Part shown: piece after piece, positions 11,072 through 60,962 of the stretch
Numbering within the stretch: position 1 is the first letter of the stretch
Layout of the letters: each line of letters begins with the position of its first letter
DNA from: Eledone cirrhosa
Lineage: Eukaryota
Direction: 5' to 3'
DNA: 64,000 nucleotides
Assembly: GCA_964016885.1 (NCBI GenBank)
Contig: OZ024743.1
Coordinates: 271,932,001-271,996,000 of the forward strand
Translations under genes and position numbers: made by a program
The notes under the pieces: generated by a model
The model's input: the letters and a program-made list of their open reading frames with translations, nothing else
Database searches by the model: none
Told to the model about the DNA's origin: nothing

Positions 11072-13008
<1,937 letters not shown>

Positions 13009-13011
13009 TTC

Positions 13012-13354
<343 letters not shown>

Positions 13355-13409
13355 TACACATATATATACATATATATATATATATACACATATATATACA
13401 TATATATAC

Positions 13410-13444
<35 letters not shown>

Positions 13445-13445
13445 C

Positions 13446-13476
<31 letters not shown>

Positions 13477-13539
13477 CACATATATATACATATATACACA
13501 TATATATACATATATACACATATATATATATATATACAC

Positions 13540-13572
<33 letters not shown>

Positions 13573-13575
13573 CAC

Positions 13576-13606
<31 letters not shown>

Positions 13607-13607
13607 C

Positions 13608-13638
<31 letters not shown>

Positions 13639-13657
13639 CACATATATATATATATAC

Positions 13658-13688
<31 letters not shown>

Positions 13689-13694
13689 CATACA

Positions 13695-13854
<160 letters not shown>

Positions 13855-13868
13855 CATATACATACATA

Positions 13869-14026
<158 letters not shown>

Positions 14027-14037
14027 AATATATATAT

Positions 14038-14552
14038 ATGTAAGTATGCATGTATACGTACATACATATATGTATACAGACGTACAGTAGCATGCACATA
14101 TATATATATATATACATATATACATACATATGCATACAGGTACACATACATATATGCACGTATCAGTTTAGCGGCGCTAACGTCGCTTTGTTCGTTTGTA
14201 AACAAACTGAACAGCCTGAATTTATGCCATACGGTGTTAAGGCAACCACGTCACCTTTTTGTTCAACACTGACACAGGAACGATGTACTAGTTTCAAGCT
14301 TGTTAGCTATCATCAGCACCGTTTACCCATCTGCCAGATAGTTGAACGTTCGAAAGTATATACTTTCCTTATGAAAATTAACGGCTGAGCAGCCTAATTT
14401 GCATATTGAGTGAGTTAAATCGGTCAGGCATACCGAAAACGATAAATTGAAACAAAATGAAAACGAAATTTCATTTCTCACTCTTAGTATGGCACTTACT
14501 TAAATGTAAGTATGCATGTATACGTACATACATATATGTATACAGACGTACA
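14038..14552 (-). mobile_element. Non-coding hammerhead-bearing retroelement (retrozyme- or pLTR-like), 466-bp unit with 49-bp terminal redundancy
   Basis: Identical 49-mer at 14038-14086 and 14504-14552; central hammerhead; CpG-rich relative to flanks. Confidence 0.6.
14279..14323 (-). ncRNA. Minimal type-I hammerhead ribozyme
   Basis: Minus strand AACGGTG-CTGATGA-T-AGCT(aaca)AGCT-T-GAAA-CTAG-TA-CATCGTT: 7-bp stem I, intact core, palindromic ACTAGT stem III, GUA cleavage triplet. Confidence 0.85.
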
Positions 14553-14575
14553 TATATAAATATATATATATAAAT

Positions 14576-14606
<31 letters not shown>

Positions 14607-14613
14607 TATAAAT

Positions 14614-14668
<55 letters not shown>

Positions 14669-14687
14669 AATATATATATATAAATAT

Positions 14688-14834
14688 AGGAAGGGCATCC
14701 AGCTGTAGAAATCAAGCCAGATCAGTTCCTGTATGAGCAAGGCATGATCAGCCGACCAGACACTGCCCACAACAGGACAACCCGTCTAACCCATGCTAGC
14801 GTGGAAGAACGGACGTAAAACGGTGATGATGATG

Positions 14835-14835
<1 letters not shown>
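14688..14835 (+). mobile_element. RTE extreme 3' end fragment
   Basis: Matches 10328-10487 and ends in (TGA)n. Confidence 0.85.
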
Positions 14836-27740: not shown

Positions 27741-28559
27741 GGAACATAAGTTTTTTTTTTCTACAAGTATAAAGAAAAATATGTTACATATACTTGGAAA
27801 CTTTAGAAATATTTCTGTTAATTTTCCCAATTTCATGATTTTCAAAATATCGGAGCATAGCTATAATAAGAGATGGCAAAATGTGGAGATATGCCATAAC
27901 TGTTTCACTTTTGAGTTTGAAAATTTGTCTGTTTTTATGGAGAGAACATGGCTCAAATTGCTATCTGTTTAAGATTCAGTTTTAATGGTTGAAGATGGTC
28001 ACAAGATCAAGCATAGAATTTTGTTAGTTCTCTATGATATCAAAGTATTAGGGTCACGTATGTGACAATATGAAAAATAATTGCTGCATCAAATGTTGCA
28101 GCTGTTTTGGTCTGTGACAGTAGCAAAAGTTAAAGCTGTGTAAATTGAGTGTGCCCCTGCATGGCCTCAGCCTGTTGGCTGGAACAAATAAGAGAGTATG
28201 TCATGTAGCAGATATGTGTGTGTAGTTTTGTGTGTGAATGGTTATTAGTGAGTGTATCTTATTAAAGCTTTGGGGAATGTATCTTGTTAAAACTTATTCA
28301 GTCATGGCTTGTATTTCTTAATATATTTTCTGTATTTATCTGTGTTTGATCTGTGGTTCTGTTTCAACAAAAGTAAAGTGGGAAGACTTGGAATTTGGAG
28401 TATTTGTTTGTTGTATATAAGTGGAATCTGTCTAGTATAGGGATCCCATATTTATTGATGATGAATAGCCATTCTGTTTCTCATATTAAGTTTTGTTTGC
28501 CCTATGTAATCTTCATTAAATCCTTTACATATAACAGCATATATCAAATATTTTGATGA

Positions 28560-29270
28560 ACAGGTGATGTGCTTTTTTTTCAATGTGTCTTCTATAAAGT
28601 TGATGCATGTTCCACAGTTAGGGTGACCTTATTTTGGAATTGCTGATGTTGAGTGTAGAGGATCATTTTTGTGTTGATAAATAGATGTTTTAGGTAATTT
28701 GGGATCCTAGATAACTTATCAAAATTCTATGCCTGACCTTGTGATCATCTTCAATCAATCCAACTGTATCTGAAACAGATAGCAATTTAAGCCATGTTCT
28801 CTCCATGAAAATAAGCTAAGGCTTAAACTCAAGTCAATGGTAAAACAGTTATGGCATATATCTACATCCTTCCATCTCACACTACTTTTGAAAAATATGA
28901 AATTGTGAAACTAGTTCAGTTAATTTAAATAAATCTCCTTAAAGACTGAGTGCATTTTCAACTTCTTTGCCCACTTATTCTTGGTAGAGTATATGAAGAA
29001 GAGTCCTCAGACACGCCTTCAAAAGAGTCCTATCAGAAGCAATTGTCTCTAATTGATCCGGCAGAATCCCTAAGCCAGACCAACCAAGCTAATGGATGTC
29101 ATCCAAGCATTTCAGTCATGGTCTACCTCTGGGTCTCCTACCAGTTGTTGTTGTTTTTTAATATATATATATTAATACACCTTTACTCATGTACTACTCT
29201 GAGTTCCATGCTTAGTAATCCATCAGGTAAGAGATGCATTATTTGTAAGAGTAATTCAGGTTGCATGTCA
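28560..29270 (-). mobile_element. Old RTE LINE relic
   Basis: Minus strand GRRPRGRP..KCLDDIH.LGWSGLG C-terminal motif plus degenerate upstream RT sequence. Confidence 0.5.
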
Positions 29271-43074: not shown

Positions 43075-46000
43075 CCTACCATGTGAGAGGTAATTTAGGG
43101 AGTACACATTCCCTACATCATGAGAGGTAATTTGCAGAGTATACATTCATTACATCATCATCATCATTTAACGTTCATTCTTCCACGCTAGCATCGATTA
43201 GGCAAGTTGTCCTATTGTGAGACATGACGTCTTGCTCATACAGAACTGATTTTGGCTTGGTTTCTATGGCTGGATGCCCTTCCTAATGCCAACCACAAAG
43301 TGTGTGCTGGGTACTTTTTGTTGTGACACCTACATGACCACTTTACAGTGTGGACTGGGTGCTTTTTGACATAACACCTACTCAACCACTTTACAGAAAT
43401 GACCACTTTATATCATATGAGAGATAATTTGGGGAGTATACATTCCCTACATCATAAGAGGTAATTTGATGAGTATACATTCACTGCAACACATGGGTAG
43501 TGATTTAGGGAGTATCATCATCATCATCATCATCATCATTTAATTTTACGTCTGCTTTTCCCTGCTTGCAAGGGTGGGACGGGAACTGATTCTGGCTTGA
43601 TTTCTACAGCTGGATGCCTTGCCTAACACCAACCTCATTTACAGTGAGTGCTGGGTGCTTTTTTGCCGTGGCACCTCCACGACCACTTTGCAGTGGAATG
43701 ATAGGGACTCCAGTCCCTATCATCTCATTTCTACAGCTGAGTAAACTGGAGCAATGTGAAATAAAGTGTCTTGCTCAAGGAAACAACACATCACCCGGTC
43801 TGAGAATTGAACTCACAACCTTTCGATTGCAAGACCAATGCTCTAACCACTAAGCCATGTGCCTCCATGAGAGGTAATTTAGGGAGTATACATTGATTAA
43901 ATCACGAGAGGTAATTTAGGGAGTATACATTGATTAAATCACATGAAAGGTAATTTAGGGAGTATACATTGACTAAATCACATGAGAGGTAATTTAGGGA
44001 GTATATATTGACTAAATCACATGAGAGGTAATTTAGGGAGTATACATTGACTAAATCACATATGAGGTAATTTAAGGGATATACATTGACTAAATCACGA
44101 GTAATATTTAGGGAGTATCATCATCATCATCATCATCTTCATTTAACGTCCATCTTCCACGCTAGCATGGGTTAGACGGGAGTTGTCCCACTTGAGGCAA
44201 GGCTAGTCGGGTGACCGTGTCTTGCTCATATAGAACTATCTGGCAGTTTTCTACGGCTGGATGCCCTCCCTACCACCAACCACATTTACAGTGTGGAACT
44301 GGGAACTTTTTACCGTGTTACCTACACGGCCACATTACAGCGTGGACTGTGTGTTTTTTTTTTGTATTAACACCTACACGATCTCGACCTCATTATCTCA
44401 TTTATTTGGACTGGATGTTGTGGTACCAACTTTACAGAGAGAGGGTGGTGTTAGTGGGAGAGGGAGGATAGGGTAGGGGTAGTGGATTGGGAGTCTACAT
44501 TGACTAAATCACATATGAGGAAATTTAGGGAGTATACATTGACTAAATCACATATGAGGTAATTTAGGGCGTATACCTTCACTGCATCATATAAGAGATA
44601 ATTTAAGGAGTATACATTCACAACATCAGACGCGAGGTAATTTATGAGTATACATTCACTTCACCATGCGAGAGGTAATTTATGAGTATACATTCACTAC
44701 ACCATGCGAGAGGTAATTTATGAGTATACATTCACTACACCATGCGAGAGGTAATTTGGGAGTATATATTCACTACACCATGCGAGAGGTAATTTGGGAG
44801 TATATATTGACTACACCATGTGAGAAGTAATTTGGGAGTATATATTGACTACACCATGCGAGAGGTAATTTGGGAGTATACATTCACTACACCATGCGAG
44901 AGGTAATTTATGAGTATACATTCACTACACCATGCGAGAGGTAATTTGGGAGTATATATTCACTACACCATGCGAGAGGTAATTTGGGAGTATACATTCA
45001 CTACACCATGTGAGAGGTAATTTGGGAGTATATATTCACTACACCATGCGAGAGGTAATTTGGGAGTATACATTCACTACACCATGCGAGAGGTAATTTA
45101 TGAGTATACATTCACTACACCATGCGAGAGGTAATTTGGGAGTATACATTCACTACACCATGCGAGAGGTAATTTGGGAGTATACATTCACTACACCATG
45201 CGAGAGGTAATTTATGAGTATACATTCACTACACCATGCGAGAGGTAATTTGGGAGTATATATTCACTACACCATGCGAGAGGTAATTTGCGAGTATACA
45301 TTCACTACACCATGTGAGAGGTAATTTGGGAGTATATATTGACTACACCATGCGAGAGGTAATTTGCGAGTATACATTCACTACACCATGTGAGAGGTAA
45401 TTTGGGAGTATATATTCACTACACCATGCGAGAGGTAATTTGCGAGTATACATTCACTACACCATGCGAGAGGTAATTTGGGAGTATACATTCACTACAC
45501 CATGCGAGAGGTAATTTGGGAGTATATATTGACTACACCATGCGAGAGGTAATTTGTGAATATACATTCACTACACCATGTGAGAGGTAATTTGGGAGTA
45601 TATATTCACTACACCATGCGAGAGGTAATTTGCGAGTATACATTCACTACACCATGTGAGAGGTAATTTGGGAGTATATATTGACTACACCATGTGAGAA
45701 GTAATTTGGGAGTATACATTCACTACACCATGCGAGAGGTAATTTGGGAGTATACATTCACTACACCATGCGAGAGGTAATTTGGGAGTATACATTCACT
45801 ACACCATGCGAGAGGTAATTTGGGAGTATATATTGACTACACCATGTGAGAGGTAATTTGGGAGTATATATTGACTACACCATGTGAGAGGTAATTTGGG
45901 AGTATATATTGACTACATCATGTGAGAGGTAATTTGGGAGTATATATTGACTACATCATGTGAGAGGTAATTCACAACATCACATGGGAGGTAATTTGAG

Positions 46001-46200
46001 AGTATATATTGACTACAGCATGAGAGGTAATGTGGAAGTATACATTGACTACATCATGTGAAGTTATTTGGGGAGTATACATTCACAACATCACATGGCG
46101 TAATTTGGAAGTATACATTCACTACATTACGTGGGAGGTAATTTAGGGAGTATACATTTTCTATATCACATGCGAAATAATTTTGGGCATATACATTCAT
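43075..46200. repeat. Intronic minisatellite: homogeneous 38-bp core (~44640-45965) with diverged 39-41-bp flanking units
   Basis: Unit CATGCGAGAGGTAATTTGGGAGTATACATTCACTACAC, period 38 (e.g. 44663 to 44701). Confidence 0.95.
43514..43866 (-). mobile_element. SINE family A inserted in the minisatellite
   Basis: Reverse complement of 862-1220. Confidence 0.88.
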
Positions 46201-53869: not shown

Positions 53870-54640
53870 TAAAACAAAACAAAGTAATGATTTACCCAGT
53901 ATATTTCAACATGATATTTCAGGGCTATTGCCCTCTTTTCAAATGAGAAATGGAAAACAAAAATGAATGGTTGATGTGTTGTACTTTAACTGGTTTACAT
54001 ATCTGAAATACGCATGTATGAAGTCGTCATAGTAGCCAATCTGCTTCATGCATTTCCAATCTATTATTTACTTGTTTTTTTGTTTTTTTTTCTGTTTGAT
54101 AATAATGGCCAAGCAGTTCTTCTGATCTACAAGGAGCTACGTTTTTTTATACGTGATCTTGTAGAATACATACACTCTCGTGCAAACTTCTGTATTGTTG
54201 ATGAGACAATTAGGAAGTATGCACATATTGTATGCAGGTATGTATCTGTAGAGTCATCTCAATGAAGGTCCCAAGTATGCCAGCTATATATTCAGGTCCT
54301 CCTTACAGATGGCTTGTCTGATAGCAGAGATCATCTTTTCACTGAAAAGCAGCAGCTTTAGGTAACATATGTTACCTCTAGGGTCATATGTCCTCTTTGT
54401 TCTTTCAAGTATTGCAGCCTTGGCATTTCAGGATAGCCATTCTTAGTGAAAACTCTCTGGAATTCCACCATGCTGGTATGTTTGTCGCTACCCTCGCTGC
54501 ATTTGTTGCACATCCGGGAGATCTCATTCTGTATATAGGACATTTTGGCTCTGTAGGGAAGAGCAGAATCATGGAGCACAAAAATCTCTTTGAAGGCATC
54601 CTTCTTGTAAAATTTGGTGCATATGAATCCCTCCTTTATG
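53870..54640 (-). mobile_element. Penelope-like relic (RT C-terminal region) with degenerate hammerhead at 53905-53946
   Basis: FYKK...LHDSALP..AKMSYIQNEISR.CNKCS...F..VF.KNGYP; downstream TTGAAAAGA-GGGC(aata)GCCC-TGAAAT. Confidence 0.7.
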
Positions 54641-60617: not shown

Positions 60618-60962
60618 GGAGACACATGGCTTAGTGGTTAGAGCATTGGGCTTGCAATCGAAAGGTTGTGAGTTCAATTCTCAGACCGGGTGATGTGTTG
60701 TTTCCTTGAGCAAGACACTTTATTTCACATTGCTCCAGTTTACTCAGCTGTAGAAATGAGATGATAGGACTTGGGTCCATATCATTCCACTGCAAAGTGG
60801 TCGTGGAGGTGCCACGGCAAAAAAGCACCCAGCACTCACTGTAAATGAGGTTGGTGTTAGGAAGGGCATCCAGCTGTAGAAATCAAGCCAGAATCAGTTC
60901 CCGTCCCACCCTTGCAAGCAGGGAAAAGTGGACGTAAAATGAAATGATGAATAAATGATGAT
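60618..60962 (+). mobile_element. SINE family A, full length
   Basis: Near-identical to 862-1220. Confidence 0.88.

Follow-up and report, generated by a model that had tools for sequence, protein, structure and literature searches.

A 1.1-unit copy of an abundant hammerhead repeat, a likely non-LTR retrozyme, in the TA microsatellites of Eledone cirrhosa

The insertion and its surroundings

The window, by which the whole analysed stretch of 64,000 nucleotides of Eledone cirrhosa DNA is meant, harbours at positions 14038–14552 a short element that is embedded in a long (TA)n array and bears a hammerhead motif on its minus strand. For its description the minus strand was numbered from q1 (position 14552) to q515 (position 14038), q49 and q515 being the identical position of the repeat unit and the predicted cut falling after q267. 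The features assigned to the element and its immediate flanks are as follows.

13012–14037, no strand: (TA)n target array, left; it resumes on the right at 14553–14688
14021–14037, no strand: 17-nt low-complexity match to 14553–14569, candidate target-site duplication (left copy)
14038–14552, minus strand: likely retrozyme insertion, 1.1 units (515 nt) of a 466-nt unit, a single arm with no inverted partner
14038–14086, minus strand: 3' end of the insertion, 14038 being the fixed "short" end (q49), a type of end found in 72 of 243 arms
14087–14160, minus strand: TA-rich tract, the length of which differs among insertions and sets the unit length
14261–14347, minus strand: extended stem I and internal loop around the hammerhead, predicted by RNA folding
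14279–14323, minus strand: type I hammerhead in which stem III is a palindrome; cleavage is predicted at 14286/14285, in dimeric form
14397–14404, minus strand: ATGCAAAT octamer within a conserved block, a putative promoter element
14442–14503, minus strand: 62-nt "tail" segment (q50–q111) between the two fixed 3' ends, internal in the window copy
14504–14552, minus strand: what is left of the preceding unit after 5' truncation (partial tandem), with an arbitrary cut at 14552
14553–14569, no strand: right copy of the candidate 17-nt target-site duplication of low complexity, matching 14021–14037

The exact 49-bp direct repeat (14038–14086 and 14504–14552), noted in the original prediction of a retrozyme, was confirmed with a period of 466 and no possible extension on either side, and so were the position of the octamer on the strand of the hammerhead (14404–14397, minus) and the non-coding nature of the element, the open frames of which are of low complexity or due to chance only. 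The element had also been described as CpG-rich. This holds for the dinucleotide itself, the CpG observed/expected ratio being 1.25 as compared with 0.38 in the window, but the GC content amounts to just 36%. A 17-nt low-complexity match flanking the element (14021–14037 and 14553–14569), which was absent from the earlier description, is a candidate target-site duplication; in non-LTR retrozymes that have one, more than 4 bp is expected. Matches of this kind were detected in 3 of 22 sister insertions, as against a mean of 0.23 and a maximum of 1 in 200 shuffles, and they appear where the TA array has interruptions, the flanks being mostly (TA)n. The window copy belongs to the youngest subfamily of the repeat, exhibits 100% identity over 515 nt with units in loci L033 and L070, and is an ordinary single-arm member of the family. 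The tail segment (q50–q111), internal in this copy, terminates one arm in sister insertions.

Several other repeats are present in the window. A 5'-cut LINE-type reverse transcriptase open frame (11268–12990, minus) begins at the edge of the same TA array, and a 5'-cut SINE-like repeat with a (GAT)n tail (14690–14835, plus) lies head-to-head with the element across it. Two near-identical tRNA-like heads (43800–43857, minus; 60627–60684, plus) probably represent tRNA-derived SINEs, one of them adjoining a 38-bp minisatellite of ~38 copies (44517–46158). ORF fragments of Penelope-like elements (PLEs) are of the Hydra-like (1503–2181, plus), Neptune (28322–28643, minus) and Poseidon-like (54155–54636, minus) types. 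Look-alikes of the hammerhead of the form CTGA-GA...GAAA, found at ~4807 (plus), at ~17644 (plus) and once on the minus strand, come from another repeat.

The hammerhead and its repeat family

The minus-strand hammerhead (14323–14279) is complete, as had been claimed: CUGAUGA, GAA, a palindromic ACUAGU stem III and a GUA site are all in place, and the cleavage site, read from the minus strand, is predicted between 14286 and 14285. Stem I (AACGGUG/CAUCGUU) comprises 7 bp with one G-U, and the stem II region reads U-AGCU-AACA-AGCU-U, with U-U at 10.1–11.1. This U-U, noted earlier as a departure from consensus, is indeed present and is a trait of the family. A precedent is axolotl HHR_Amex2, whose stem II also has U-U at its base and whose stem III is likewise 2 bp long; 22% of its monomer is cleaved within an hour, and its dimer cleaves much better (PMC7229834). 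U stands at 10.1 in all 100 hammerhead matches listed, a pattern with non-U at this position yielded 1,064 further matches, mostly of an older subfamily with C-A there, and a sister family has G-C; decay is therefore ruled out as the origin of U-U. Two resident PLE families, D and H, have the same U-U at the stem II base.

The Rfam models, proposed earlier as a check of the motif, gave no hammerhead match at gathering level, the best being Hammerhead_HH9 (RF02275) with 18.5 bits (cut-off 52) and an E value of 0.13. The Rfam miRNA matches in the window are TA hairpins. Folding of the whole unit gave z = −8.9, a value inflated by the inclusion of the TA tract, while for the non-TA core z = −3.8 was obtained and none of 100 shuffles folded as well. 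In the fold of the circular unit, stems I and II with an open core cost 2.1 kcal/mol and stem III is unpopulated, as expected for a dimer-type motif; the hammerhead of the window unit is predicted to act as a dimer. In the case of Xenopus retrozyme dimers, only one of nine was cleaved in vitro (10.64898/2026.07.22.740005). Within the family, 90–96% of the cells of helices 1–3 are paired, and no covariation above that of shuffles was found among 39 family members, in which the core is fixed by the selection of the loci.

The family was counted by exact sequence patterns in the 3.0-Gb genome. A 31-mer of the hammerhead has 10,694 exact matches and its reversed control 0, which shows that the motif did not arise by chance. 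The 49-mer of the direct repeat has 6,302 exact matches and hence belongs to the unit; the possibility that it is merely a long target-site duplication is thereby ruled out. The tandem copies that had been anticipated exist as well, many of the hammerhead matches lying in arrays with a period of 456–540 bp, and the family spans monomers to multimers, dispersed and in short tandem units. A ~53-kb array of the unit with mixed periods (G000:C3:12,271,000–12,325,000; loci L248, L249 and L266) has G at the cut position in 31 of the 31 units read (GUG, predicted inactive) and perhaps represents a satellite that expanded from an inactivated ribozyme.

A diverged sister family, found unselected at locus L255:1–1380 (plus), has a period of 466–467 nt and shares 67.5% identity over the best block. 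In its hammerhead the core and the palindrome are unchanged, the site is GUC, and the canonical G-C occupies 10.1–11.1. The stems differ by four double-sided changes in total, namely G-C to U-A and C-G to G-C in stem II, and G-U to U-A and G-C to A-U in stem I (all pairs read by eye from the alignment), and both end-site sequences are retained. With respect to the putative ribozyme, the sister family is more informative than the covariation within the family.

The octamer ATGCAAAT is intact in 367 matches, the next variant being present in 10 (the loci overlap, and these counts are not independent), and its block is retained in the diverged sister family. It is regarded as a candidate internal promoter element. 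In newt satellite 2, an octamer acts as a snRNA-type promoter. That repeat resembles the present one in being a tandem hammerhead repeat with an octamer inside the unit; here the promoter role is putative, and no proximal sequence element was identified. The hammerhead and dimer cleavage of newt satellite 2 are summarised in PMC7229834.

The original assignment of the element to the retrozymes is supported, the 49-mer occurring in thousands of copies and the unit following a copy of itself instead of an ORF. Each unit carries a type I core, is non-coding with a GC content of 36%, occurs in tandem and lacks an LTR pair, and autonomous PLEs are present in the genome. Metazoan non-LTR retrozymes, those of coral, mussel and axolotl, are likewise non-coding tandem repeats with units of a few hundred bases, a single type I hammerhead in each and less than 50% GC, and they too number in the thousands and share their genome with PLEs (PMC7229834). 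Vertebrate retrozymes are similar in forming monomers, dimers and multimers, in their type I hammerhead and in the co-occurrence of PLEs (10.64898/2026.07.22.740005). The unit length of 456–540 nt, however, is at or above the range of 150–450 bp given for metazoan retrozyme units, and circles and cleavage, which are predicted for the present family, are reported for coral, mussel and axolotl (PMC7229834). A plant LTR retrozyme, for which type III topology, paired LTRs and a 4-bp target-site duplication are expected, is ruled out by the type I topology and the tandem units. The repeat thus likely belongs to the non-LTR retrozymes, with self-cutting and circular RNA as predicted properties; it is not an autonomous PLE, nor, on the families sampled, a pLTR. 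Among the papers listed on hammerheads with Penelope and octopus, none treats the retrozyme by title or abstract; the supplements of PMC7229834, PMC8557442 and 10.64898/2026.07.22.740005 may list related families. The words "hammerhead", "retrozyme" and "ribozyme" do not occur in the main text of PMC13282606.

Insertion ends and the template

The ends of the insertions were mapped in 133 stretches picked by four different patterns. Two fixed 3' ends, 62 nt apart, were recognised: the short end at q49 in 72 of 243 arms and the tailed end at ~q111 in 100, the remaining 71 arm ends being uncertain, cut or off the edge. The 85 head-to-head pairs include 40 with one short and one tailed end, one with two short ends, none with two tailed ends and 44 with at least one end not firmly called, so that one short end is combined with one tailed end in 40 of the 41 pairs firmly called at both ends. 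The 5' ends within the core are scattered over q63–q354, and 130 of 173 join an inverted arm. Such 5' truncation is accompanied by partial tandems, and the insertions are flanked mostly by (TA)n.

Two fixed 3' ends with a tail at one end constitute the published Penelope footprint. PMC8557442 describes PLE insertions as partially tandem, with an inverted, 5'-truncated arm, a tail on a single end and (TA)n as the target. In vitro, the PLE tail was found to be the stretch between two internal starts of reverse transcription, both DNA strands are cut and extended, Penelope reverse transcriptase starts internally on unprocessed linear RNA, and hammerhead mutants leave PLE insertion unaltered (PMC11167929). 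The likeness to PLEs of the Hydra and Neptune clades comprises the partial tandems, the inverted arm, the one-end tail, the (TA)n targets and the dimer-type hammerhead (PMC8557442, PMC11167929, PMC4209133). PLEs, however, carry an ORF, which the retrozyme unit does not, and the retrozyme tail measures 62 nt, as compared with the 30–40 bp described for PLEs and ~40–90 nt in the PLEs of this genome. In PMC7229834 PLEs are proposed, not demonstrated, as the mobilisers of retrozymes, and the words "inverted" and "microsatellite" are absent from its main text. The authors of 10.64898/2026.07.22.740005 favour local tandem growth, the parts of that study compared here giving no analysis of insertion ends.

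Given this PLE-type insertion pattern, the 1.1-mer of the window is understood as the fixed short end combined with a 5' truncation that happens to fall 49 nt inside the unit before it. We are highly confident that the window element is a 5'-truncated copy, 1.1 units long, of an abundant non-coding 466-base repeat with a hammerhead; this repeat is likely a non-LTR retrozyme that the enzyme of a PLE, acting in trans, places in TA microsatellites. The original prediction went further and saw in the 1.1-mer the print of an RNA circle in particular, a view that is not supported in this form, as a linear multimer would leave the identical print. Since Penelope reverse transcriptase starts internally on uncut linear RNA, the 1.1-mer alone is no sign of a circle; it needs a tandem or circular template and does not separate the two.

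Other loci offer better, if mixed, evidence of a circle. One substitution in the youngest subfamily has 10 occurrences assembly-wide, all of them in a single insertion, nine in one arm and one in the other. This private variant is thus present in 10 of 10 units of both arms, no source locus being present in the assembly, which fits rolling-circle copying; a source array missing from the assembly is another possible explanation. Locus L303 contains six 476-nt units of identical length with 128A common to both arms, and in L299, situated beside a run of N, six units of 460 nt are identical and the next two, of 466 nt, are different. Together with the private variant, these two loci fit a reverse transcriptase that circles one circle and then changes template. 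The unit length is characteristic of each insertion and common to both arms. Over 272 positions, units of one locus differ on average by 0.96 substitutions (two large arrays contributing the bulk of the 231 pairs) and those of different loci by 8.27, the array statistics being drawn mostly from C1 0–90 Mb.

At the predicted cut site, 2 truncations were seen among the first 30 of the 203 matches with non-A before q268. A control site gave 17 breaks, two of them short deletions, among the first 30 of its 116 matches, though this site could be a hot spot of microhomology, and most of the loci were picked for an intact hammerhead. As 5' ends are not enriched at the cut site, the cDNA appears to run through it intact, and a cleaved linear monomer as the main template is unsupported, no pile-up of 5' ends being seen. 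In G070 the order 247T, 458, 466 occurs once in one arm and twice in the other, and in L311 a variant is found in two of seven units, which indicates that multi-unit templates or later exchange occur. Variants common across the array G012 recur at locus L288, and for this reason shared variants may be marks of lineage. Marks of A-to-G editing were not confirmed in a small sample of 49 unselected multi-unit loci, where two A>G and two T>C were counted among eight rare variants common to all units, those in more than two loci having been dropped.

On balance, a monomer circle is somewhat favoured as the usual template. Alternatively, the same enzyme could copy linear RNA that is read through from a tandem array and left uncut, with no circle involved and the hammerhead dispensable for mobility, an explanation that deserves serious attention even if we do not expect it to prevail. 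The internal start of PLE reverse transcription and its indifference to hammerhead mutations in vitro (PMC11167929) agree with it, as do the ordered three-unit pattern in both arms of G070 and the lack of an excess of ends at the cut site. It is, however, harder to reconcile with a variant carried by all 10 units of one insertion in an assembly without the source locus, with a unit length that is set per insertion and common to both arms, with a ribozyme of compensated stems in the diverged sister family, and with the circles known for coral, mussel and axolotl retrozymes (PMC7229834). A satellite-like growth of the arrays after insertion by unequal crossing-over, retrotransposition being confined to monomers and dimers, is unlikely: it would account for the ~53-kb C3 array with its mixed periods and G at the cut site in 31 of 31 units read, and for the internal duplications in G070 and L311, but not readily for private variants and a unit length common to both inverted arms, nor for the precise PLE-type ends kept in small arrays.

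Penelope-like elements as candidate partners

The PLEs of the genome comprise several Neptune-type families, assigned by the CxxxxCxxC linker (analyst's reading), one Poseidon-like family and families of the Hydra type. Those with comparable ends show short and tailed forms, with tails of ~40–90 nt. Family I, which is of the Hydra type, is young (99–100% identity over 143 aa among the 150 matches listed) and has 821-codon open frames with the motifs RWT, DKT, CxCX5C, CxxC and CxH, which mark the Hydra clade by comparison with PMC8557442; no Pfam match was found in the 634-aa part of its protein that was scanned. At L253–L262 and L047:3768–5843 this family forms a tandem unit of 3.7–3.85 kb with a long-stem-II hammerhead and a ~90-nt tail. 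The hammerheads of the Neptune-type families A, B, C and F (L095:2205, L101:1952, L118:4851 and L081:467) have the U3-A8 core variant described in PMC4209133, that of family B having GCAA instead of GAAA. The end of family H (L004:1159, L036:4383) bears a hammerhead-like motif with CAGAAGA for CUGANGA and U-U at the stem II base.

No homology of the unit to the termini of 10 PLE families was detected, no sense-strand P being below 0.09, and the likeness of its tail end to the end of the Neptune family B was not significant in this comparison. In Xenopus, 24 of 57 retrozyme families match annotated elements, nearly all of them PLE ends (10.64898/2026.07.22.740005), whereas here 0 of 10 PLE termini are matched. 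An ordinary pLTR abutting a Penelope ORF, named at the outset as an alternative, was not encountered: at loci L001–L070 no ORF enters the unit at a fixed boundary, and the unit precedes itself, up to ~15 times in one arm. With these observations against it, the idea that the unit is a detached pLTR of an unsampled Penelope-like family and its copies 5'-truncated PLE insertions is very improbable, even if one bears in mind that only 150 of 10,596 GIY-YIG candidates were scored, that PF01541 misses Hydra-type proteins and that Xenopus retrozymes match pLTRs (10.64898/2026.07.22.740005).

In five composites, the unit is joined to PLE sequence without intervening TA. Two of them (L031 and L034) involve family I. 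In two others (G022 and G047) the unit meets J-type ends, which in L041 are found where a Hydra-like ORF finishes, as judged by eye. All four of these Hydra-type composites have one short and one tailed outer end, an outcome expected by chance about once in 16, while the fifth (L227), formed with the Neptune-type family B, apparently has two short ends, provided that the arm is continuous. In G012 and G042 the unit joins a SINE-like repeat directly, and composites can therefore arise by deletion; none of the 41 stretches of family I has a direct junction with a retrozyme unit. The composites suggestively point to a Hydra-clade partner and are to be taken as a lead. That a Hydra-clade element is the main partner seems a nearly balanced proposition, falling slightly on the doubtful side.

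According to the proposed mechanism, tandem loci would be transcribed, perhaps with the octamer as an internal promoter; hammerheads acting in pairs would release RNA of unit length, which a host ligase would circularise, as is known for other retrozymes. A Penelope-type GIY-YIG nuclease acting in trans would cut (TA)n. Reverse transcription on one DNA end or on both would begin at one or other of the two fixed sites within the RNA, read across the uncut ribozyme site for 0.1 to ~15 units, occasionally switch template and end at a random point. A more specific version can be put forward only tentatively. It holds that a self-promoting RNA circle with no resident-pLTR ancestry might parasitise the enzymes of Hydra-clade Penelope elements, that reverse transcriptase might prime at two internal sites from both cut ends of (TA)n and round one circle up to 10 times, and that it might, just as conjecturally, switch between circles and PLE mRNA. 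If this is true, the composites would identify the partner element and preserve, within the genome, a trace of the rolling-circle step.

With regard to the mobility of animal retrozymes, PLEs have been named as candidates (PMC7229834), and co-occurrence and pLTR homology have been described (10.64898/2026.07.22.740005). The retrozyme class is already known; the footprint at the level of ends, the private variants in two arms and the composites go beyond the parts of the papers compared. The present family is young and numerous enough for its insertion footprint to be counted, and it offers two starts of reverse transcription, a putative internal promoter and, as a possible partner, a PLE whose open frames are intact, which makes the question of mobility testable in vitro with the assay of PMC11167929.
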